Origin: Thermoplasmatota archaeon
Lineage (GTDB): Archaea; Thermoplasmatota; E2; UBA202; JdFR-43
Direction of reading: 5' to 3'
Length of the DNA: 64,000 nt
Assembly: GCA_038818725.1 (NCBI GenBank)
Contig: JAWAYL010000002.1
Coordinates: forward strand, 1,346-65,345
The translations under genes were made by a program, and so were the position numbers. The stretch's first letter is position 1; each line of letters opens with the position of its first letter. The notes under the pieces were generated by a model. That model was not told where the DNA came from. It did not search any database and was given only the letters and a program-made list of their open reading frames with translations. Below are positions 4,373 to 58,934 of the stretch, in pieces.

Positions 4373-5146
4373 ATGAACCCACTTATGCCAGTAAAGGGGA
4401 AAATAATTGAAAAAAGAAAAATAAATGATAAAAAATTTTTGAGAATCGAGGCAGAAAACTTTAATTTTATTCCAGGACAATTTGTAGAGATATCTCTTGC
4501 TGGAATTGGAGAATTTCCAATATCGATATGCTCCCCACCCTATGAAAAAAATTTTTTTGAAATTTGCATAAGAAAAGTTGGAAGAGCAACTTCTTTCTTC
4601 TATAATATAGATGAAATTGATTATGTTTTTTATAGAGGGCCGTATGGAAATGGCTTTCCAATGGAAAAACTGAAAGGGAAAAATATTGTCGCAATCATAG
4701 GAGGGCTTGGTATACTGCCATTAAGAAGTTTTATAAAAGAAGCTATTCATTCAAAAATTTATAATCAGATAAAAATTCTTTATGGAGCGAGGAGCAAGGA
4801 CGAAATTATATTTCCAGAAGAAATTGAAGAATGGAAAAAGCATGCTGAGGTATATGAAATTTTTGAAAAAGAAGGAGAAAAAAGAGGTTTTGTAACTGAA
4901 TTATTAAATGATATAGTTTTTGATGGGGACGAATATCTTCTTATATGTGGTCCGCCTGCAATGTTTAAGCCAGTTATAGAAAAAGCTATAAAAAGAGGAG
5001 CAAATGAAGAAAATATATATTTGTCTGTTGAAAGAAGAATGAAATGTGGCATTGGAAAATGTGGGCATTGTATTGTTGGAAGCTATTATGCATGCATTGA
5101 TGGTCCTGTTTTTGAGTATGTTAAATATAAGCATGCTATTTTATAG
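4373..5146 (+). CDS. PyrK/NfnA/HydG-family FAD/NAD(P)-binding oxidoreductase subunit with C-terminal [2Fe-2S] motif
   Basis: 257 aa. A ferredoxin-reductase-like fold (RGPYGNGF, GGLGILP) and a C-terminal CGIGKCGHC...C cluster motif, as in sulfide dehydrogenase beta / NfnA / hydrogenase gamma. First gene of a 6-gene translationally coupled operon. Confidence 0.7.
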   Translation: MNPLMPVKGKIIEKRKINDKKFLRIEAENFNFIPGQFVEISLAGIGEFPISICSPPYEKNFFEICIRKVGRATSFFYNIDEIDYVFYRGPYGNGFPMEKLKGKNIVAIIGGLGILPLRSFIKEAIHSKIYNQIKILYGARSKDEIIFPEEIEEWKKHAEVYEIFEKEGEKRGFVTELLNDIVFDGDEYLLICGPPAMFKPVIEKAIKRGANEENIYLSVERRMKCGIGKCGHCIVGSYYACIDGPVFEYVKYKHAIL

Positions 5147-5167
5147 CAAGTAAATGATAAATAAGAG

Positions 5168-5638
5168 ATGATAATTATTTCAGCAATGCTTGTATATAAA
5201 CAATTTCCAGTTTCGATAAATCAAGAAAAATGCTCAAAATGCAGAATATGTGTCTCAATATGTGATTGTTTTTCTTATGATAAAGAAAGGAGCATTATTT
5301 TATTAAATAATATTTCCTGCAAGGGCTGCGGGGTTTGCACCGCTTCCTGCCCTTCTTCTGCTATATCGCATATCCAAGATGATTCGTTTTTTTATTTCTC
5401 TGAAAAAAAGGAGGTAAATGAGCTTGAATGTGAAAAATGTCTTTATGAATTTGTTGAAAGAGAAGATTCAGTAATTTTTTGTGATAGAAGATTTGATATT
5501 GGAATTGCTATTAAAAAATTTTGCGAAGGAAAGAGAATAGAAGTAAAGAAGTGCATTTTTTCAGACAAGCTAGTAGAAAATGAAAAATTCAGAAAATTTT
5601 CAAAAATTGTTCATCTGTTTGGTGTAGAAAATGATTGA
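5168..5638 (+). CDS. 2x[4Fe-4S] ferredoxin-like protein
   Basis: Motifs CSKCRICVSICDC and CKGCGVCTASCP. Its stop overlaps the next gene start (5631/5638). Confidence 0.6.
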   Translation: MIIISAMLVYKQFPVSINQEKCSKCRICVSICDCFSYDKERSIILLNNISCKGCGVCTASCPSSAISHIQDDSFFYFSEKKEVNELECEKCLYEFVEREDSVIFCDRRFDIGIAIKKFCEGKRIEVKKCIFSDKLVENEKFRKFSKIVHLFGVEND

Positions 5639-6689
5639 AGATATAATAACGAGAAGCAAAGCATATTATTGCGTTGAATGCAGGAAATGTAGTTCTGCAT
5701 GTCCAGTTACAAGAGTTTATGGAAAATTTTCTCCAGCAAGTATGGTAGAACACTCTCTGATTGGCATAGAAGATGAAATAATTTATTCATATGATATATG
5801 GAAATGCCTCACTTGTGGAATTTGTGAGAAGATATGCCCCTCTGGTGTGGATTTTTTAAGCTTTATAAAAGAAATAAGAGAAATTGCAAGAGAAAATAAA
5901 AATTTTGGAATCTCAGCACATGAAAATATTTTTGAAGAAGTAGCTTGCTTATTTGGAAAAAATGATATATTTTTAGAAATGAATGATGTAGAGATAGATG
6001 ACAAATCAAAAATTCTCTATTTTGCGGGCTGTTTGCCAATATATGATGTATTTTTTGATAGCATCGGATTCAATGGCATTGCTATTGCAAAAAATACAAT
6101 TAAGATTTTGAATTATTTTGATATAGTTCCATCTGTAATATTTTCATGCTGTGGGCACGATGCTTTATGGAGTGGAAATAAAGGAATTTTTGAAAAAATG
6201 AAAAGAAAAAATATGGAAAAAATTAAAAATTTTGAAAAAATAATATTTTCCTGCCCTGAATGCTACAGAACTTTTAAATTTGATTATAAAGCAAATGTTG
6301 AAATGATGCATATTTCAGAATTCCTTGCAAAAAAAGATTTTGAAGAGAATTTAAATAAAATTTGTACAATTCATGATTCGTGCAGGCTCGGCCGCCATTT
6401 GGGAATTTATGATGAGCCAAGAGAAGCTCTTAAAAAAATTGGATGTGAAATAAAGGAAATGGAGCATTCTCGCGAAGCCTCGATCTGCTGCTCTACTTCT
6501 GCATGGATGGCATGCGACTGGATGGCGGAACAGTTAAGAAAAGAAAGGCTTGCTGAAGCGGAAGAGCAGGCAAATTTGCTCATCACTACTTGCCATAAAT
6601 GCAAAATTCATTTCTTATGCACAATGAGTCATGAAAAATATAATATCGAAGTAAAGGATTTGGTTGAAGTTATTGGAGAGGCCATATGA
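5631..6689 (+). CDS. hdrD: HdrD-like heterodisulfide reductase subunit (HdrC ferredoxin domain fused to HdrB CCG domains)
   Basis: N-terminal CVECRKCSSACP and CLTCGICEKICP (HdrC-like). The C-terminal half has two CCG-type Cys-rich motifs (FSCCGHDALW...CPEC and DSCRLGRH...ICCSTSA...CHKC), as in HdrB/HdrD. No HdrE-like membrane subunit is present. Confidence 0.75.
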   Translation: MIEDIITRSKAYYCVECRKCSSACPVTRVYGKFSPASMVEHSLIGIEDEIIYSYDIWKCLTCGICEKICPSGVDFLSFIKEIREIARENKNFGISAHENIFEEVACLFGKNDIFLEMNDVEIDDKSKILYFAGCLPIYDVFFDSIGFNGIAIAKNTIKILNYFDIVPSVIFSCCGHDALWSGNKGIFEKMKRKNMEKIKNFEKIIFSCPECYRTFKFDYKANVEMMHISEFLAKKDFEENLNKICTIHDSCRLGRHLGIYDEPREALKKIGCEIKEMEHSREASICCSTSAWMACDWMAEQLRKERLAEAEEQANLLITTCHKCKIHFLCTMSHEKYNIEVKDLVEVIGEAI

Positions 6690-7960
6690 AGAATGTGCTT
6701 ATAATAGGAGGAGGCGTTGCTGGAATACAGGCGGCGCTTGACCTTGCGGATCAAGGCATACATGTTTATTTAGTTGAAAAAGAGCCAAGCATCGGCGGAA
6801 GAATGGCTTTGCTTGATAAAACAATGTCAACAAATGATTGCAGTATATGCATTCTTGCCCCTAAAATGAATGAATGCGCATCTCATCCAAATATAGAAAT
6901 TCTTGAATATTCTGAAGTTATTGGGCTTGAGGGAAATGCTGGAAATTTTAAGGTTAAAGTTAAAAGAAAGGCAAAATATGTTGATTCAAGCAAATGCACT
7001 GGATGTGGTGATTGCATGGAAAAATGTCCTACTGAAGTTCCAAATGAATACAATAGCTATATCGATAAAAGGAAGGCAATTTTTCTTCCATTTCCTCAAT
7101 CGGTTCCAAGAAAGGCAACAATTGATAAAAGATATTGCTTGAAATTGAATAAAAATAGATGCGGTCTTTGCCAGAAAATATGCAAGGCAAAGGCGATAGA
7201 TTATAGCCAAGAAGATAAGATAATTGAGCTTGATGCCGCCTCAATAATAGTTGCAACAGGTTTAGAAGTATATAATCCATATGATATTAAAGAATATGGT
7301 TATGGAAAATTTGCAAATGTGCATAGTTGGATTGAATATGAAAGGCTTATAAATGCATCTGGTCCAACTCATGGACATTTAAAATGTGCTCCAGATGGAA
7401 GAAGACCCAAGAGAATTGCATTTATTCAATGCGTTGGCTCTAGAGATGTTAAAAGATGCGAATGGTGCTCTTCTGTCTGCTGTATGGTTTCAATAAAAAG
7501 TGCAATGCTTGCAAACGAGCATTACAATGATATCGAATCCTTCATATTTTATTCAGATTTAAGAGTTTTCAGTAAAAGATTTTATGAATATAGCAAAAGA
7601 GGAGAAAAAGATTACAAAATTACTTACATACATGCTCGTCCAGGAGAAATAAAAGAAGATAGGCATACAAAAAATCTGATAATATATTATGAAGATGAAA
7701 AGGAAGGAAAAGTAAAAGAGCTTGAAGTAGAGATGGTTATTCTTGCAACTCCAATAATGCCTTCAAAAAGCAATCTCGAAATTTCAAAAATTCTTGAAAT
7801 AGAGCTTGATAAATATGGATTTATAAAAACAAATGAAGTTGAAACAACAAGAAAAGGCATATATGCTGCTGGTTGCTGTTGCTCGCCGAAAGACATAACT
7901 GAAAGCGTTTATCAGGCAAGCGCTGCCGCATGCAGGGCAGCGGAGTGGTGCCATGCCTAG
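6686..7960 (+). CDS. hdrA: HdrA-like flavoprotein paralog (FAD/TrxR-like domain plus inserted ferredoxin domain; lacks HdrA N- and C-terminal domains)
   Basis: GxGxxG motif MKNVLIIGGGVAGIQAALDLA, inserted 2x[4Fe-4S] motifs CTGCGDCMEKCP and CGLCQKICKA, and a CSSVCCMVS motif. 424 aa, much shorter than the canonical ~650 aa. Confidence 0.75.
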   Translation: MKNVLIIGGGVAGIQAALDLADQGIHVYLVEKEPSIGGRMALLDKTMSTNDCSICILAPKMNECASHPNIEILEYSEVIGLEGNAGNFKVKVKRKAKYVDSSKCTGCGDCMEKCPTEVPNEYNSYIDKRKAIFLPFPQSVPRKATIDKRYCLKLNKNRCGLCQKICKAKAIDYSQEDKIIELDAASIIVATGLEVYNPYDIKEYGYGKFANVHSWIEYERLINASGPTHGHLKCAPDGRRPKRIAFIQCVGSRDVKRCEWCSSVCCMVSIKSAMLANEHYNDIESFIFYSDLRVFSKRFYEYSKRGEKDYKITYIHARPGEIKEDRHTKNLIIYYEDEKEGKVKELEVEMVILATPIMPSKSNLEISKILEIELDKYGFIKTNEVETTRKGIYAAGCCCSPKDITESVYQASAAACRAAEWCHA

Positions 7961-9626
7961 AATAGGAGTTTTTATCTGCGACTGTGGAACAAATATAGCT
8001 GGCTTTTTAGATGTGCCTGCGGTATGTGAATATGCAAAAAGTTTGCCTGATGTAGTTTATGTAAAGGAAAATATGTATACTTGTTCAAATGCAGGCTTGC
8101 AAGAGATAATGAATGCAATTAAAGAGTATAATCTTGATAGAGTTGTTGTTGCATCATGCACGCCACGAACTCATGAACCACTTTTCAGAAAAGCATGTGA
8201 AATGGCTGGACTAAATAAATTTTTATTTGAATTTGTGAATATACGCGACCAATGCTCATGGGTCCATCAAAAAGAAAGAGAAAAAGCTACAGAAAAAGCA
8301 AAAGATTTGGTAAGAATGGGAGTTGCAAAAGCTCGCCTTCTTGAGCCTCTTGAGGAGATAAAAATAAGTGTGGAAAGAGCATGCCTTATTATAGGAGGTG
8401 GAATTTCTGGTTTAACCTCAGCTATTGCACTCGCAAAAAAAGGCATAGAGGTACATTTAGTGGAAAAAGATGAAAAGCTTGGAGGGATTTTAAACAATAT
8501 TTACAGAGTTTATCCAGATGATGAGGAGGCAATTGAAATTTTAGAGGATATTATTGAAGAAGTTAAAAAATATAAAAATATAAATATATATCTATCAAGC
8601 GAGGTGGAGAAAGTAGATGGATATATAGGGAATTTTAATGTAAAAATAAAAGGAAAAATAAATAAGGAGATAAAAGTAGGAACAATAATTGTTGCAATAG
8701 GAGCAAAACCATATCAACCAGCATACATGTATAACTATCAGGAATATGAAAATATAATAACTCAGATTGAGCTTGAAGAAATGCTTAAAGAAAATAAAAT
8801 AAAAGGAAAGAATTTTGTCTTTATTCAATGTGTTGGAGGAAGGGGAGAAAGGGTGAGATATTGCTCAAGAATATGTTGCATGAATTCAATAAAAAATGCA
8901 AGAATAATAAAGAAATTAATTCCTGATTCAAATGTTTATATAATTCATAAGGGCTTGCAGACATATGGAGTTAAATATGAAGAATATGTAAGGAAGGCAA
9001 GAGAGGAAGGTGTTAGATTTATAAGAGTAAGAGATGAAATTCCAACAGTTTCATCAATTGAAAGAAAAGATGGAAGAATTGTTGTTGGGTTCTATCATCC
9101 TGGACTAAGAAGAAAGATTGAATTGCCCGCAGATTTAGTAATTCTTTCAACACCTCTCGTAGAAAGTGAAGATGCAAAAAGAATATCTCAAATGCTAAAA
9201 GTTCCTCTTGGGCTGGATGGCTTTTTCTTTGAGGCGCATGTAAAGTTGCGCCCCGTAGATTTTGCAACAGATGGTATTTATATGTGTGGTTCATGCAGGG
9301 CGCCCGCAAGCATTGAGGAAGCAAAAATTCAAGCTTTAGCTGCTGCTGGAAGAGCATTAATTCCTATGGCAAATGGTTTTGTTAAAGTTGAGCCATATAC
9401 ACCATATATTGATGAGGAAAAATGCAGGGCTTGTGGGATGTGTGTTGAAGTATGTCCTTATGGAGCAATGAGGATTGTTGAAAAAAATGGTAAAAAAGTG
9501 GCGGAAAACATACAAGCAGCTTGTAAAGGATGTGGAGCTTGCTCTTCTTCCTGCATTCACAAGGCAATTGATATGAGGCATTTCAGTGATAAACAAATAA
9601 TTGCTGAAATAGAGGTGATAGATTGA
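7953..9626 (+). CDS. hdrA: HdrA heterodisulfide reductase subunit A (N-terminal 4-Cys domain + FAD domain + C-terminal 2x[4Fe-4S] ferredoxin; no inserted ferredoxin)
   Basis: N-terminus PRIGVFICDCGTNIAG...VASCTPRTHE; FAD motif CLIIGGGISGLTSAIALA; YCSRICCMNS; C-terminus CRACGMCVEVCP and CKGCGACSSSCIH. Overlaps the neighbouring genes by 8 nt (start) and 4 nt (stop). Confidence 0.8.
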   Translation: MPRIGVFICDCGTNIAGFLDVPAVCEYAKSLPDVVYVKENMYTCSNAGLQEIMNAIKEYNLDRVVVASCTPRTHEPLFRKACEMAGLNKFLFEFVNIRDQCSWVHQKEREKATEKAKDLVRMGVAKARLLEPLEEIKISVERACLIIGGGISGLTSAIALAKKGIEVHLVEKDEKLGGILNNIYRVYPDDEEAIEILEDIIEEVKKYKNINIYLSSEVEKVDGYIGNFNVKIKGKINKEIKVGTIIVAIGAKPYQPAYMYNYQEYENIITQIELEEMLKENKIKGKNFVFIQCVGGRGERVRYCSRICCMNSIKNARIIKKLIPDSNVYIIHKGLQTYGVKYEEYVRKAREEGVRFIRVRDEIPTVSSIERKDGRIVVGFYHPGLRRKIELPADLVILSTPLVESEDAKRISQMLKVPLGLDGFFFEAHVKLRPVDFATDGIYMCGSCRAPASIEEAKIQALAAAGRALIPMANGFVKVEPYTPYIDEEKCRACGMCVEVCPYGAMRIVEKNGKKVAENIQAACKGCGACSSSCIHKAIDMRHFSDKQIIAEIEVID

Positions 9627-12625
9627 AAATACTTGGCTTGCTTTGCAACTGGTGCAGTTATGCAGGAGCGGATTTAGCTGGCGTTAGTAGATTTCAATAT
9701 CCTCCAAGCATAAGAGTTGTTCGTGTGATGTGTTCAACAAGAGTTGAGCCATCTTTTATTATTAAAGCATTTTTAAAAGGAGTTGATGGTGTTCTTGTGG
9801 GCGGATGCCATCTTGGAGATTGCCACTATGTTACTGGAAATTACTATACCATAGGCAAGATTTATGTTGCAAAAAAATTGCTTAAATTTGCTGGAATTAA
9901 TCCCTCTCGTTTAAGACTGGAGTGGATTTCTGCAAGTGAAGGAGAAAAATTTGCAAGAGTTGTTGAAGAATTTACAAGAGAAATTGAAGAGCTAGGCCCT
10001 TTAAAAGATGAGCTAAAAGATGATAATATGCTTAAAGTTGCATATAATGTCGCTAATAAGCCAAGAGCAAGAATAATTGCTTCAAAGCATAGAATGCTTA
10101 CATTTTTTGGAAATAAATATAACGAAATATATACCAATTATGAATTTGATAGGATAAGTGATGAAATTTTAAAAGATGAAATGATTACAGAAGCAATAAA
10201 ATTTTTATTAAAGGATGAAAAAAATTTTGAGGAAATTGCTGAAAGAATTGGAGTTAATGGAAAAACCTTATATTTTTACCTTCTTGATTTGATAAAAAAG
10301 GGAGAAATATCATTTAGAGAAGAAAATGGGAAATATCTGTTTTTTGTAGCAGATAAAAAGGAGGAAAAAATTGAGACATTTATACCAAATTCAATCATAA
10401 GCAAGGAGGCGCATCTAATATTTGGAGCAGGCGCAAAAGGAATAAACAGAGCAATTGAAATAGCAAGAAAAGGGGAAAATGTTGTTATTGTTGAAAGATT
10501 TCCTTCAATAAATAAATATATTATAAGAAAGCATGCCTCCTCTTTTGAAAATGAATGTAAATATGAGGAATTTTTAAATTTAGTAAAAGAAGGAAAAATA
10601 ACTGTTTTAAATAATTCAATTGTAAAAAGCATAAGAGATGGAATTGTAAGAATAATAAAATATCCATCTCGTATAAATGAAAATTGCAATAACTGCAATA
10701 TATGCTATGAAGTTTGCCCTCTTAAAACAGTTGATAGAGAGCAAACTCTTTTTTCAAGAAAGGCAGTTTATGGAAGAAACGGCATTCCATGCACCTTCTT
10801 TTTGGAGAGAGAAAGCCCGTTTTGCCAGACAAATTGTCCAGCACATGTAGATGTTCGTGGGTATGTAGCGAGAATTGCTGAAGGAGATTTTGAAGGAGCA
10901 ATAAATGTTATAAGGCAAAGATTGCCATTACCTGGTGTGCTTGGAAGAGTATGTCCCCATCCTTGCGAAGAGTTTTGCAGAAGAAACGGGATTGATGAGG
11001 CAATTTCAATAAGACTACTAAAGAGATTTGTCGCTGACTGGGAATGGCAAAACAAGGGAATAATTTATCTTGGAAAAATGCCAGTAAATGAGAATAATAA
11101 GCGTAGGGTTGCTATAATTGGCTCTGGTCCTGCTGGCTTAACTGTTGCATATGAACTCGCCAGAATTGGCTACAAAGTTAAAATTTTTGAAGCATTACCT
11201 GTTGCCGGCGGGATGCTTGCTGTTGGCATACCTCCTTATAGGCTTCCAAAAGATGTGCTTGCTAGAGAAATAAATGCGATTCTTGAAATGGGGGTTGAAT
11301 TGCAGTTGAATTGCAAGGTAGGAAAGGATATATCTTTTGATGAGGTGAGAAAAAATTTTGATGCGGTATTTATTGGAATTGGTGCACATAAAAGCAGGAA
11401 AATGGGAATTGAAGGAGAAAATTTGCGGGGTGTTATATCAGGTATTGATTTTTTAAGAGAAGTAAATATATATCCCGAAAATGTAAGAGCAATTATTTCT
11501 GGAAAGAAAGTAGTTGTTGTTGGCGGTGGAGATGTTGCAATAGATGCAGCAAGATGCGCAATAAGATTTGGATGCGATGTAACAATTTTATATAGACGAA
11601 GCAGGGATGAAATGCCAGCTCGTGAAGAGGAAATAAGATATGCAGAGGAGGAAGGGGTTAATTTTCGCTTTCTGGCAGCTCCATTAAAAATTATTGGGAA
11701 AGGAAGCGTTGAAAAAATCGAATGTATAGAAATGGAGCCTGGTGAGCCAGATGAAAGTGGGCGCAGGAGGCCTGTGCCGAAAAAAGGAAGCGAATTCTTC
11801 ATTGAAGCAGATGTTGTTATCTCTGCAATTGGCCAGCAACCTGATTTATCATTTTTACCAGATGAAATAAAAAAAGATGGATTAATTGTTGTTGATGAAA
11901 ATACTGGGGCAACTTCTTTGCCAGGAGTTTTTGCAGGAGGAGATGTAGTAAGTGGCCCTTCAATAGTAATAGAAGCGGTTGCATGGGGAAGAAGGGTTGC
12001 TAGAGCAATAGATGCATATTTAAATGGCAAAAAAATAGAATTTGATCCTATTGAAAGAGATATAAATAGGGCAATTGCAAGTTATGAAGATGTTGAACTA
12101 ATGAAAAGAAATGTTGTTTTATCAATTTTTAAAAAAGAAAATAGGAAAAATATTGAAGAAATAAGCATCGATGAAAGATTAACAACATTTAAGGAAGTTG
12201 AAAAGGGTTTTGATAAAAAAACAGCAATAAGTGAGGCTTCTCGCTGCCTTGCCTGTAGGGCTTGCCTTGGCTGTGGGATATGTGGAAATGAATGCATTAG
12301 AAATGCTATTGATTATGAAGAAAAGGAGGAGGAGATTGAAATATTTGCAAAATCAATAGAAATTGATCCAGAAATAAAATTTAATTATGAATTTTTCACT
12401 CCTTTTGAAATTGAAGATATGCTCCAGCTAGGAATAATTATGAATTTTAAAGGAGAAAAAATAAAGAAGATATGCTTTTTAAATTTTGAGGAAAACAAAT
12501 ACTTCAATGAATTAAAGAAAAAAATTTTAGAAAATGGAATAGAAATTGGCGAATCAGATTTTAAAGTAGATTTCCGCTTTTATGAAACAGATTATTATAA
12601 AAAAATTAAAAAAATGGCTAGCTAA
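9623..12625 (+). CDS. Fusion protein: MvhD (N-terminus) - linker/possible wHTH - GltD/NfnB-like NADPH:FAD oxidoreductase with 4Fe-4S domains - ~120-aa C-terminal tail
   Basis: Residues 1-130 (MKILGLLCNWCSYAGADLAGVS...GGCHLGDCHYVTGNYY) match MvhD. Residues ~330-900 match the GltD/NfnB family: CPAHVDVRGY...RVCPHPCEEFCRR, RVAIIGSGPAGLTVAYELA, VVVVGGGDVAIDAARCAIRFG. A 4Fe-4S motif CLACRACLGCGICGNEC lies near the C-terminus. 1000 aa. Confidence 0.75.
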   Translation: MKILGLLCNWCSYAGADLAGVSRFQYPPSIRVVRVMCSTRVEPSFIIKAFLKGVDGVLVGGCHLGDCHYVTGNYYTIGKIYVAKKLLKFAGINPSRLRLEWISASEGEKFARVVEEFTREIEELGPLKDELKDDNMLKVAYNVANKPRARIIASKHRMLTFFGNKYNEIYTNYEFDRISDEILKDEMITEAIKFLLKDEKNFEEIAERIGVNGKTLYFYLLDLIKKGEISFREENGKYLFFVADKKEEKIETFIPNSIISKEAHLIFGAGAKGINRAIEIARKGENVVIVERFPSINKYIIRKHASSFENECKYEEFLNLVKEGKITVLNNSIVKSIRDGIVRIIKYPSRINENCNNCNICYEVCPLKTVDREQTLFSRKAVYGRNGIPCTFFLERESPFCQTNCPAHVDVRGYVARIAEGDFEGAINVIRQRLPLPGVLGRVCPHPCEEFCRRNGIDEAISIRLLKRFVADWEWQNKGIIYLGKMPVNENNKRRVAIIGSGPAGLTVAYELARIGYKVKIFEALPVAGGMLAVGIPPYRLPKDVLAREINAILEMGVELQLNCKVGKDISFDEVRKNFDAVFIGIGAHKSRKMGIEGENLRGVISGIDFLREVNIYPENVRAIISGKKVVVVGGGDVAIDAARCAIRFGCDVTILYRRSRDEMPAREEEIRYAEEEGVNFRFLAAPLKIIGKGSVEKIECIEMEPGEPDESGRRRPVPKKGSEFFIEADVVISAIGQQPDLSFLPDEIKKDGLIVVDENTGATSLPGVFAGGDVVSGPSIVIEAVAWGRRVARAIDAYLNGKKIEFDPIERDINRAIASYEDVELMKRNVVLSIFKKENRKNIEEISIDERLTTFKEVEKGFDKKTAISEASRCLACRACLGCGICGNECIRNAIDYEEKEEEIEIFAKSIEIDPEIKFNYEFFTPFEIEDMLQLGIIMNFKGEKIKKICFLNFEENKYFNELKKKILENGIEIGESDFKVDFRFYETDYYKKIKKMAS

Positions 12626-13565
12626 TTTCTCCCGCCCAATATGGCTTCCTCACATATTCATATATCTTTTGAGATGCTATTGCTCCATGCGCTGCGCCAA
12701 CAATAAGCAGGCGGAAAGCGCCTCGCACTATATCTCCAACCGCAAAAATTCCCTCAACATTTGTGCGCTGCATTGCATCAGTTATTATATAACCTTTTTC
12801 ATCTGTTTTTATTCCAAGCTCAGCAAACATTTCTGTATTTGGTTTTAATCCAACTGCAAGAACTACTTTATCTACCTTGAGTGTTTTTCTTTCTCCTGTT
12901 TTGTTGTTGAAAATAACTGCTTCCTCAACTTTATCTTTTCCTCTTATTTCTTCAAGCTCTGTATTCAACAATATATTTATCTTACTTTCCTCCATTTTCT
13001 TTACATTTTCATCTAAAGCCCTGAATCTATCTCTCCTATGGATTATTGTTATTTCTTTAGCAAGATCAACTAAATCAAGGGCTGCATCAACAGCGGTATC
13101 TCCTCCTCCAACAATGAGAACCTTGCTATCTATAAAATCTTCTCTATGAGTAACATAGTAATAAACACCCTTATCTCCTTTATTGAATTTACTTTCTCCT
13201 TCTATACCAAGTTCCTGAGGGCGTGTTCCAGTTGCTATAACAATTGTCTTACCATGATATTCATTCTCTTCTGTTTTCACAACTCCTCCTTTTTCTATTT
13301 TAATGACTCTTTCTCTTACCATTTTAATATATGGACTTTCTCTTGCTTGCTTTATCCATTTTCTTACAAGTTCAATTCCAGTTATTCCTTCTGGAAAGCC
13401 AGGATAATTTGGTATTACCTTGCTTGGATATAGTGTTGCTGGCAAACCACCCCATTTTCCTCCTTCAAGTATAAGTGTTTTAAGCATTCTACTTGCACAC
13501 ATGATAGCAGTTGTCAATCCAGCTGGTCCGCCTCCAACAACTATAACATCATACATTTCTTCCAT
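12618..13565 (-). CDS. Thioredoxin reductase-like flavoprotein (TrxB/FNR family) lacking the redox-active CxxC
   Basis: MYDVIVVGGGPAGLTTAI and a second nucleotide-binding motif KVLIVGGGDTAVDAALDL. No CxxC motif anywhere, so possibly a YumC-type ferredoxin:NADP reductase. Convergent with the hdr/mvhD operon, overlapping it by 8 nt. Confidence 0.65.
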   Translation of the reverse strand: MEEMYDVIVVGGGPAGLTTAIMCASRMLKTLILEGGKWGGLPATLYPSKVIPNYPGFPEGITGIELVRKWIKQARESPYIKMVRERVIKIEKGGVVKTEENEYHGKTIVIATGTRPQELGIEGESKFNKGDKGVYYYVTHREDFIDSKVLIVGGGDTAVDAALDLVDLAKEITIIHRRDRFRALDENVKKMEESKINILLNTELEEIRGKDKVEEAVIFNNKTGERKTLKVDKVVLAVGLKPNTEMFAELGIKTDEKGYIITDAMQRTNVEGIFAVGDIVRGAFRLLIVGAAHGAIASQKIYEYVRKPYWAGEIS

Positions 13566-13757: not shown

Positions 13758-13849
13758 GGGCCTGTAGCTCAGCTAGGTAGAGCACCTGGCTTTTAACCAG
13801 GTGGCCGAGGGTTCGAAATGGCGCTGCCACGAAAATCCCCCCAGGCCCG
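13758..13849 (+). tRNA. tRNA-Lys(TTT) with a probable ~17-nt non-canonical intron in the T-loop
   Basis: Acceptor GGGCCTG/CAGGCCC, D-arm GCTC-AGCTAGGTA-GAGC, anticodon arm CCTGG-CTTTTAA-CCAGG. The T-arm GAGGG-TTCGA[ATGGCGCTGCCACGAAA]AT-CCCCC only closes if the bracketed segment is removed. The insert contains a TGGC-GCT-GCCA hairpin. Confidence 0.6.
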
Positions 13850-22043: not shown

Positions 22044-23573
22044 ATGAAAAATGCTATTGGAAGAGAATTGCCAGAAGAAATAAATGGAAGAAAATTAATT
22101 CCATATAATGGGGCTTTTTCATTTAAGCCAGATAAAAGGCAATATGCAAAGCCATTAAAATGTGTTTTTCCTGATGAAAAAAAATTGTTGCCTTCAATAA
22201 AAGAAGCAATAAAAAAAGTAGGGTTGGAAGATGGAATGACAATTTCTTTTCATCATCATTTAAGGAATGGTGATGCTATTGTAAATTTAGTTGTTGATGA
22301 AATTGCAAAAATGGGTATAAAAGATATAAAGCTTGCTCCAACTGCTCTTTTTCCAGTTCATGAGAAATTAATTGAGCATATAAAAAATGGAGTTATTACT
22401 TCGATAGAAGGGAGCTTAAATGGTCCTCTTGGAGAATATGTTTCAAGAAATGGCTTGGATGAGCCAGTTATTTTGCGTAGCCATGGAGGAAGAGCAAGAG
22501 CAATAAAAAGTGGTGAGCTGCATATAGATGTAGCTTTTCTCGCAGCTTCAACTGCTGATGAATATGGAAACTGCAATGGAATGCTTGGCAAATCTGCATT
22601 TGGAGCAATGGGCTTTGCATATGCGGATGCAATGTTTGCAGACAATGTTGTTGTAATTACAGATAATTTACAGCCATATCCTGTCACACCAATTTCAATA
22701 CCTCAGATATATGTTGATTATGTTGTTCAAATCGATAGTATCGGCGACCCTTCTGGCATACAAACAGGAACAATGCAAATAACAAGAAGCCCAGCCCGTC
22801 TCACCATCGCAAAAAATGTAGTAAAATTTCTGGCAAAGGCTGGCATATTAAAAAATGGCTTCTCATTTCAGGCTGGAGCGGGCGGCATAAGCTTGGCTGT
22901 CACAAAATTTTTACATGAATATATGAAGGAGAAGGGAATAGTTGGAGACTTTGTTATGGGAGGAATAACTGGGTTTGTTGTTGATATGCTCATGGATGGA
23001 ACAATAAGAAAAATTCTTGATGCTCAGAGTTTTGATTTAAAAGCAGTTGAGTCAATATCTAAAAATCCTGCTCATGTTGAAGTTAGCCATATAATGTTTG
23101 GCGACCCACATACATGCGGATGTGTTGTTAATAGGCAAAATGCTTGCTTTTTAGGTGCAACTGAGATTGATTTAAATTTTAATGTAAATGTAAATACTCA
23201 TTCAGATGGATTGCTTTTGCATGGAATAGGAGGACATCAAGATGCTGCTGCTGGAAGTGATGTTACTATAATAACAGTTCCTTTACTCAGAGGAAGATTG
23301 CCAGTAATAAGGAAGGAAGTTACAACTGTTTCTACTCCTTGCCATACAGTTGATGTTGTTGTTACAGATCGAGGAATAGCAATAAATCCTGAAAGAGAAG
23401 ATTTAATTGAAGCAATTAAAGGAAAAGTTGAAATTGTTGATATAGAAGAGCTTTATAAAAAGGCAAAAAGTTTGGTTGGTGAGCCAAAGGAGCCAAAATT
23501 TAGTGATGAGATTGTAGCAATAGTTGAGTATAGAGATGGAACAACACTTGATGTTATAAGGAAGGTGAAATAA
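22044..23573 (+). CDS. citF: Citrate lyase alpha subunit (citrate CoA-transferase, CitF)
   Basis: Collinear with bacterial CitF by memory: DGMTISFHHHLRNGD, HGGRARAIKSGELHIDVAFLAASTADEYGNCNG, and C-terminal IVAIVEYRDGTTLDVIRKV. 509 aa. No citD or citE is adjacent. Confidence 0.8.
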   Translation: MKNAIGRELPEEINGRKLIPYNGAFSFKPDKRQYAKPLKCVFPDEKKLLPSIKEAIKKVGLEDGMTISFHHHLRNGDAIVNLVVDEIAKMGIKDIKLAPTALFPVHEKLIEHIKNGVITSIEGSLNGPLGEYVSRNGLDEPVILRSHGGRARAIKSGELHIDVAFLAASTADEYGNCNGMLGKSAFGAMGFAYADAMFADNVVVITDNLQPYPVTPISIPQIYVDYVVQIDSIGDPSGIQTGTMQITRSPARLTIAKNVVKFLAKAGILKNGFSFQAGAGGISLAVTKFLHEYMKEKGIVGDFVMGGITGFVVDMLMDGTIRKILDAQSFDLKAVESISKNPAHVEVSHIMFGDPHTCGCVVNRQNACFLGATEIDLNFNVNVNTHSDGLLLHGIGGHQDAAAGSDVTIITVPLLRGRLPVIRKEVTTVSTPCHTVDVVVTDRGIAINPEREDLIEAIKGKVEIVDIEELYKKAKSLVGEPKEPKFSDEIVAIVEYRDGTTLDVIRKVK

Positions 23574-58825: not shown

Positions 58826-58934
58826 CCCGGCGTAACTCAGACTGGTAGAGTGGCGGACTGTAGTTGCATCTCTTGGGCTATAACCCACCGCCGCGGAAAT
58901 CCGCAAGTCGCTGGTTCAAATCCGGCCGCCGGGA
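58826..58934 (+). tRNA. tRNA-Tyr(GTA) with ~35-nt intron at the canonical 37/38 position
   Basis: Acceptor CCCGGCG/CGCCGGG, D-arm ACTC-AGACTGGTA-GAGT, anticodon stem GCGGA with CTGTAG, then the intron (TTGCATCTCTTGGGCTATAACCCACCGCCGCGGAAA), then TCCGC. T-arm GCTGG-TTCAAAT-CCGGC. Confidence 0.8.

Follow-up and report, generated by a model that had tools for sequence, protein, structure and literature searches.

A split HdrA in a Thermoplasmatota archaeon

Two adjacent genes in a stretch of 64,000 nucleotides (nt) from a Thermoplasmatota archaeon (contig JAWAYL010000002.1 of assembly GCA_038818725.1; this whole stretch is hereafter called the window) divide between them the domains of HdrA, the electron-bifurcating flavoprotein of heterodisulfide reductase (Hdr). 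The first, P1 (424 amino acids (aa); 6686..7960, + strand), is of a core type: it has the thioredoxin reductase (TrxR)-like core that binds flavin adenine dinucleotide (FAD), a conserved Cys pair, the [4Fe-4S] cluster HA4 and the inserted 2x[4Fe-4S] ferredoxin. The second, P2 (557 aa; 7953..9626, + strand), is of an arm type: besides a divergent FAD/TrxR core that also has HA4, it has a cluster domain at the N-terminus and a 2x[4Fe-4S] ferredoxin at the C-terminus. The domains and cluster ligands of the two proteins are complementary, this complementarity and the gene order are conserved among relatives, and the two are also found joined in natural fusions. We consider it likely that P1 pairs with P2, as unequal subunits, in a single asymmetric HdrA heterodimer, an unfused form of the BamE-like "type II" double HdrA. 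Their physical association would be expected from the natural fusions and from homology to HdrA dimers of solved structure. The two open reading frames (ORFs) overlap by 8 nt (ATGCCTAG), which suggests translational coupling.

Anatomy of P1 and P2

We used as reference the HdrA of PDB entry 5ODC (chain A), whose sequence was rebuilt from alignments and then aligned with members of the family to obtain a residue map. P1 aligns without a break over its residues 3-419 to HdrA 145-562 (E-value 1.2e-135). For P2 the alignment falls into two blocks, with residues 2-235 matching HdrA 4-237 and residues 239-554 matching HdrA 318-647 (E-value 1.5e-150). The identity to canonical HdrA in the TrxR core is 50% for P1 and 39% for P2, and alignments at this level to a solved protein settle the domain content of both. 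An initial annotation of this DNA had described P1 as the FAD/TrxR core with the inserted ferredoxin and without the terminal domains, and P2 as the N-terminal domain, FAD core and C-terminal ferredoxin without an inserted ferredoxin; the coordinates and the alignment to HdrA 145-562 agree with the former description, and the alignment of P2 to 5ODC with the latter. Both proteins belong to the HdrA superfamily, each retaining the TrxR-like FAD core and HA4. Neither is a canonical four-domain HdrA: they score 505 and 554 bits against the NF040770 model, for a cut-off of 1100, and the accessory domains are divided over the two polypeptides.

The ligands follow the same division. The inserted ferredoxin of P1 (around residues 96-175; approximately 6971..7210, + strand), the place of clusters HA5 and HA6, has all eight Cys ligands (C104/107/110/114 and C151/159/162/166), and P2 has none of them. 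The site of the canonical 80-residue insertion corresponds in P2 to a junction at residues 235-239 (8655..8669, + strand), where residue 235 maps to reference position 237 and residue 239 to position 318. A concealed inserted ferredoxin in P2 was thus rejected, as just about three residues span the interval from HdrA 237 to 318. The N-terminal domain of P2 (around residues 1-130; approximately 7953..8342, + strand), which is part of the mobile arm described below, contains Cys9/11/44/69 (plus C101). Its C-terminal ferredoxin (approximately 9390..9623, + strand) has eight of eight ligands (C491/494/497/501 and C524/527/530/534), and P1 has no counterpart of the Cys of either terminal domain. 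The pair known as Cys194/Cys197 in HdrA is Cys52-x-x-Cys55 in P1, placed by both the alignment and the residue map (codons at 6839..6850, + strand), and is replaced by Glu twice in P2 (E192/E195).

What the two proteins share is the flavin core. The HA4 ligands (Cys386/399/403/404 in the reference) are C249/261/265/266 in P1 and C293/304/308/309 in P2, and the FAD-binding motifs (GxGxxG, E173 and the GD-type motif) are found at G8/G10/G13, E31 and G391/G396 in P1, and at G148/G150/G153, E171 and G441/G446 in P2. The same is true of the two residues by the flavin that were proposed as markers of bifurcation, Lys409 and Glu356 (PMC12054007), which are K271/E219 in P1 and K314/E275 in P2. Hence, the idea that the pair carries exactly one copy of every canonical HdrA domain holds for the accessory domains, which occur once each, but not for the FAD/TrxR core with HA4, which occurs in both. 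As to whether only one of the paralogs keeps the bifurcation-site residues, the alignment map places Lys409 and Glu356 in both, and the Cys pair in P1. We also considered whether P1 could be a CoA-disulfide reductase, and rejected this because matches to that family have E-values around 6e-5, against 1e-135 for HdrA. Neither of the two findings that the initial annotation named as refuting its reading, an inserted ferredoxin in P2 and a P1 of the CoA-disulfide reductase family, was thus made.

Distribution and age of the split

We fetched 80 genomic loci and typed each of their HdrA-like ORFs by the segments of 5ODC that it covers. Counting the window, 18 loci have a P1-type gene followed immediately by a P2-type gene. 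These loci come from Sifarchaeum, Bathyarchaeia, Promethearchaeota, Methanobacteriota, Thermoplasmata, the ANME-2 (anaerobic methanotrophic archaea, ANME) and an unclassified bacterial metagenome-assembled genome (MAG). A gene or domain of the MvhD family comes after P2 in every one of them, and the order P1, P2, MvhD is fixed. The two types are also found as single polypeptides in the same order, in 43 ORFs of around 1000-1150 aa that cover the segments [145-567]+[2-236]+[316-646]. By the Rosetta-stone argument, these 43 natural fusions indicate that P1 and P2 work together.

The division of domains is very regular. Among core-type sequences (n=66), the eight Cys of the inserted ferredoxin are present in 66/66, the Cys pair in 64-66/66, and the terminal domains in 0/66. 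Arm-type sequences (n=61) have the Cys of the N-terminal domain and of the C-terminal ferredoxin in 61/61, and the Cys pair or the inserted ferredoxin in 0/61. By class, the Cys194/Cys197 pair occurs in 18/18 tandem core-type sequences, in 41-43 of the 43 fused ones and in none of the 61 of the arm type. The complementarity of core and arm is thus essentially exceptionless over the 18 tandem pairs and 43 fusions.

In a neighbour-joining tree of the TrxR cores, both types formed pure clades (core-type 63/63, arm-type 57/57), from which we conclude that the duplication behind P1 and P2 is old and not lineage-specific. Arm-type cores are the more divergent: conservation is gone at the 182-202 loop, at R357, at G363/P364/G367 and at D546. 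They retain the FAD-binding glycines, E173, E356 and the HA4 Cys, and 45 of the 61 also retain Lys409.

Short P1-type proteins form a very large family. The best 120 database matches of P1 all have 398-460 aa and come from Thermoplasmata, Methanobacteriota, Actinomycetota, Pseudomonadota and Anaerolineaceae, among others. Within our loci, five P1-type genes have no neighbouring P2-type gene, several of these being at contig ends. Other layouts were also observed. At two Bathyarchaeota loci (L020, 11959-15226; L029, 9989-13284), a P1-type gene is followed by a full four-domain HdrA of 653 aa instead of a P2-type gene, which shows that other pairings of short and long HdrA exist. In five Thermoplasmata loci (L032, L044, L047, L050 and L074), the P1/P2/MvhD set has on one side one or two genes for a fused type II HdrA, every one of which is accompanied by a separate MvhD, and on the other an HdrCB::MvhD fusion. 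Judging from these layouts, several asymmetric Hdr units are encoded side by side.

A probable selenocysteine at the Cys197 position

The Cys194/Cys197 pair has been placed between the [2Fe-2S] cluster of MvhD and the bifurcating FAD (PMC13580544). In 17 core-type relatives, mostly bacterial, the codon equivalent to Cys197 is an in-frame TGA, within the motif N/M-D-C-x-I-U-I-L. These sites are at L023:14969, L027:5541, L035:7166, L038:4931 and 10151, L041:9283, L046:10160, L055:3590, L060:10160, L065:15141, L068:3374, L075:607, L077:10744, L080:1775, L083:4032, and L086:2077 and 5619. Since the codon is always TGA (17/17) and never TAA or TAG (0/17), it probably encodes selenocysteine. Such a replacement in 17 relatives supports a redox role of the Cys pair.

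Some bacterial ORFs from which half of the core, the first, appeared to be missing are in fact P1-type genes interrupted by the in-frame TGA at the Cys197 position. As the P1-type ORFs of L023, L027, L035, L041 and L077 had been called short at this codon, these loci represent five further tandem pairs. More generally, gene callers will truncate the core-type HdrA genes that bear the TGA.

Proposed electron path through the heterodimer

In the mechanism derived from cryo-electron microscopy (cryo-EM), the mobile arm made of one HdrA's N- and C-terminal domains crosses over to its partner, bearing MvhD and the shuttle cluster HA3. The arm serves the partner's FAD', Cys202'/205' (Cys202/205 correspond to Cys194/197 in 5ODC numbering), HA4' and HA5'/HA6'. 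The [2Fe-2S] cluster of MvhD approaches Cys202'/Cys205' and FAD'; the exit route of the high-potential electron is by HA4' to HdrC and HdrB, and the low-potential one is carried by HA3 on the arm to HA5'/HA6' (PMC12350162, PMC13580544). Published accounts differ on the location of HA3 and on whether Cys197 is a ligand of the N-terminal cluster, and for this reason we assign the shuttle cluster only to the N-/C-terminal arm as a whole. The initial annotation had started from the premise that the inserted ferredoxin of one protomer serves the other protomer. This does not match the current cryo-EM model, in which HA5'/HA6' serve the FAD' of their own protomer and it is the arm of the partner that crosses. 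The conclusion that the pair is asymmetric holds despite the imprecise premise.

Following this model, P1 would be the full catalytic core, with the bifurcating FAD (K271, E219), the Cys52/Cys55 pair, HA4 and HA5/HA6. P2 would be the mobile arm, whose N- and C-terminal cluster domains would bear the shuttle cluster and dock the MvhD domain of a 1000-aa protein encoded immediately downstream (9623..12625, + strand; Pfam FlpD, HTH_40, Fer4_20 and Pyr_redox_2). NAD(P)H would probably be the source of the electrons, which would come in by way of the GltD/NfnB-like module joined to that MvhD domain, together with a PyrK/NfnA-like subunit. At the flavin of P1 they would be bifurcated: the low-potential electron would exit through HA5/HA6 of the inserted ferredoxin to ferredoxin, and the high-potential one would pass through HA4 to the fused HdrCB and its disulfide. 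The reverse direction may also be used. As P1 has all the elements of the core and P2 has the arm, exactly one complete path would be available per P1-P2 dimer. The flavin core of P2 is most likely structural or an accessory redox partner, given that the Cys pair, the loop around it and the inserted ferredoxin have been lost and that no arm reaches the P2 core.

The closest structural precedent is BamE of class II benzoyl-CoA reductase, a fused HdrA dimer resolved by cryo-EM in a 2026 preprint (bioRxiv 10.64898/2026.04.10.717634). Its N-terminal TrxR1 contains the bifurcating FAD, with Lys280 at N5 and a Cys59-Cys62 pair, and its TrxR2 contains a non-bifurcating FAD with Gln768, which is considered structural. 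A single bifurcating FAD in the P1-P2 dimer is suggested by the wiring and by this precedent, and not by the marker residues. Our comparisons lend strong support to the obligate asymmetric heterodimer that had been put forward, having one complete path for electrons, whereas the single bifurcating flavin is not established by the residues proposed to mark it.

Several observations weigh against this arrangement. P2 retains Lys409 (K314), Glu356 (E275), the FAD motifs and HA4, and it has a Lys where the non-bifurcating flavin of BamE has Gln. On the donor side, the PyrK-like subunit (257 aa) has as its top NCBIfam matches the gamma subunits of hydrogenases and sulfhydrogenases, and AsrB, every one of them under the curated cut-off. 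Among the other ORFs of the window, the ten largest were scanned against Pfam and gave no methanogenesis-linked families.

The residues kept in P2 could mean that both flavins are active, in which case the P1/P2 unit would have two redox-active and possibly two bifurcating sites, and the FAD and HA4 of P2 would feed a second HdrCB or a soluble cofactor directly. The retention of K314, E275, the GxGxxG and GD motifs and the four HA4 Cys, together with Lys409 in 45/61 arm-type sequences, is what one would expect in this case, and it was argued from Lys409 and Glu356 that bifurcation could take place at both TrxR domains of type II HdrA (PMC12054007). However, the P2 core has neither the inserted ferredoxin nor the Cys pair (0/61 in the arm type), P1 offers no arm to it, and R357, G363/P364/G367 and the 182-202 loop are lost in the arm type. 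Furthermore, the second FAD is not at a branching point in BamE, which is the sole solved relative with such a layout. We regard two active flavins as unlikely. A more elaborate arrangement would be one where an Nfn-type module (the GltD/NfnB-like and PyrK/NfnA-like parts) and an Hdr-type module (P1) are tethered through MvhD, with the P2 flavin as a third redox-active site. We find this quite improbable; if true, the presence of Nfn and Hdr modules in one assembly would be a new serial wiring of bifurcation or confurcation in a non-methanogenic archaeon.

It is very hard to reconcile the data with P1 and P2 residing in separate complexes, each a homodimeric HdrA-like enzyme in its own right with nothing but the operon in common. 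Short HdrA-like proteins can act alone, as does the sHdrA of Hyphomicrobium, a 349-aa homodimer (6TJR) that was among the PDB matches, and the five P1-type genes without an adjacent P2-type gene would fit, although several of them are at contig ends. Yet, the losses are perfectly reciprocal over 61-66 sequences per type, 43 single-polypeptide fusions exist, the P1-P2-MvhD order is strict and the start and stop codons overlap. A P1 homodimer would lack the arm that docks MvhD and the shuttle cluster, and a P2 homodimer would lack the ferredoxin exit and the Cys pair. Finally, although fused P1-P2 genes of around 1000-1040 aa are common among relatives, there is next to no chance that the split is a frameshift or an assembly error in one fused type II hdrA gene: an identical P1 protein occurs in six independent assemblies, with the 557-aa P2 following wherever the contig continues, 18 loci from different phyla show this split as well, their two genes overlapping slightly or lying a short gap apart, the ATG start of P2 aligns to residue 3-4 of canonical HdrA, and the core types from tandem and from fused genes form separate subgroups (identity of 54% among the tandem ones and of 47% across the two).

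The gene cluster and its electron donor module

P1 and P2 are the fourth and fifth of six closely packed genes, all on the + strand (window positions 4373-12625), separated by gaps of at most 22 nt or overlapping by 4-8 nt. The first gene encodes the 257-aa PyrK/HydG/AsrB/NfnA-like FAD/NAD(P)-binding protein with a [2Fe-2S] site (4373..5146, + strand; Pfam NAD_binding_1 and DHODB_Fe-S_bind). The second encodes a 2x[4Fe-4S] ferredoxin-like protein of 156 aa (5168..5638, + strand; Pfam Fer4 families), which resembles the C-terminal ferredoxin domain of HdrA, its top NCBIfam matches lying at positions 566-626 of HdrA2 and 582-706 of HdrA. This protein may serve as an adaptor, or else take up the low-potential electrons directly. 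We observed five extra Cys in its C-terminal half. The third gene encodes a fused HdrC-HdrB, similar to HdrD (352 aa; 5631..6689, + strand; Pfam Fer4_8 and CCG twice). It has two CX2CX2CX3C motifs (residues 14-24 and 59-69) in a 2x[4Fe-4S] HdrC part that matches HdrC of 5ODC in alignment, and two complete C...CC...CXXC (CCG) motifs of the non-cubane cluster type (residues 134-211 and 245-324). From these motifs, the fused HdrCB is presumed to be the disulfide-reducing site.

The sixth gene encodes the 1000-aa protein, a composite of several modules. It starts with an MvhD domain (residues 1-128; E-value 4.7e-51 against Pfam FlpD and 7.5e-51 against 5ODC_D), in which C11/H63/D66 correspond to MvhD C16/H68/D71 (Methanothermobacter marburgensis numbering; offset of +5 against 9SW2_D), residues that were discussed previously (PMC13580544). 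A winged-helix-turn-helix-like segment follows (residues 195-256), and then a remnant of the HdrA TrxR core with half a ferredoxin (residues 261-398). This remnant aligns to HdrA 143-292, i.e., the N-terminal first third of the TrxR core, and is what is left of a third HdrA-like scaffold in the cluster. The GltD/NfnB-like module (around residues 397-800) is complete (Fer4_20 and Pyr_redox_2; 510 bits against PRK12771, and matches to GltD families of NCBIfam) and is inserted within the split ferredoxin of the HdrA-like remnant. The protein ends with the second half of the ferredoxin and a vestigial tail without the HA4 cysteines. Relatives that match it over the full length came only from Thermoplasmata-type MAGs and a few Halobacteriota, and the remoter matches are GltD-inserted HdrAs of 1100-1650 aa.

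The electron donor suggested by these domains is probably NAD(P)H. Both domain sets of the Nfn type, the GltD-like large one and the PyrK-like small one, are present, and the curated Nfn models are unmatched. The same list of parts is found at a Bathyarchaeia locus (L011), where genes for P1, P2::MvhD, an NfnA-like and an NfnB-like protein lie in a row.

Other features of the window were also recorded. A thioredoxin-reductase-like gene (315 aa; 12618-13565, - strand) converges on the cluster, overlapping the end of the gene for the 1000-aa protein by 8 nt, and keeps this position in related assemblies (L001-L004). Around 10 kb downstream of the operon there is a homologue of the citrate lyase alpha subunit CitF (22044-23573; E-value 2e-167). 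A 109-nt Rfam tRNA match missed by ARAGORN (58826-58934) is probably an intron-containing archaeal tRNA, and a 58-nt partial tRNA match (13758-13815) is weak, barely over the Rfam gathering score.

Relation to known systems

The heterodimer is already predicted in print. Chadwick et al. 2022 (PLoS Biol, PMC9012536) described tandem HdrA genes in ANME (HdrA5/6 and HdrA12/13) with complementary C-terminal ferredoxins, proposed that they form heterodimers breaking the two-fold symmetry, and pointed to the same pattern in fused double HdrAs (HdrA3/4). The arrangement has since been seen for the fused relative BamE. By its description, the ANME HdrA5/6 system resembles ours in having adjacent hdrA genes, one with the N-terminal domain and without Cys197, the other with Cys197 and without the N-terminal domain. 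It differs in its partners, which are FdhAB-like genes in ANME and the MvhD-GltD/NfnB fusion with a PyrK-like subunit here, and in its host, here a Thermoplasmatota MAG with no methane-metabolism genes among the window ORFs scanned.

HdrA-HdrA fusions have been recorded across Archaea (PMC11237513), and the double HdrA was named "type II", its halves deriving from two distinct type I classes (PMC12054007). The fusions in our loci have the same halves as P1 and P2 in the same order, with the core half N-terminal and the arm half C-terminal. By residue number, P1 C52/C55/K271 are near BamE C59/C62/K280. The BamE system, by its description, also has an MvhD-like adaptor with a winged helix-turn-helix and an HdrD-like BamD, as here. 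In contrast to BamE, there are two polypeptides here, the N5 position is occupied by Lys in P2 but by Gln768 in TrxR2, a GltD/NfnB-like donor module takes the place of the HydBC-like one, and the tungsten BamBC output module is absent.

Compared with the canonical (HdrABC)2 complexes with Mvh, Fdh or Elp (5ODC, 7BKB, 8RVU, 9SW2), the ligands of the domains that were retained are conserved and the logic of an arm serving its partner is the same. The canonical complex, a C2 homodimer, has two complete paths, whereas here only one can be assembled, and HdrB and HdrC are fused. The 1000-aa protein resembles the "type III" GltD-inserted HdrA in having a GltD module within the split ferredoxin of an HdrA-like scaffold, but it has lost most of the HdrA core and gained an N-terminal MvhD. 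A comparable set of parts occurs in the FlxABCD-HdrABC system of Desulfovibrio, where the HdrA/B/C-like genes come with others for a flavoprotein that binds NAD(P)H, for ferredoxin-like subunits and for an MvhD-like adaptor.

The split HdrA pair and its fused form are thus widespread and already described, and the pair in the window is a clean new example rather than a discovery. It opens no new question, as the heterodimer had been proposed by 2022 and cryo-EM later resolved a fused relative that is asymmetric. Its value is modest, and its coupling to the uncommon MvhD-GltD fusion adds to it. It represents a naturally dissected HdrA, with the entire catalytic core in one gene and the mobile arm in the other. 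Since core and arm can be mutated separately, without the two-fold symmetry that complicates the Hdr of methanogens, it would be a convenient system to test the conformational gating of Hdr bifurcation. It also indicates that Thermoplasmatota have asymmetric HdrA units tied to NAD(P)H modules in a setting other than methane metabolism.

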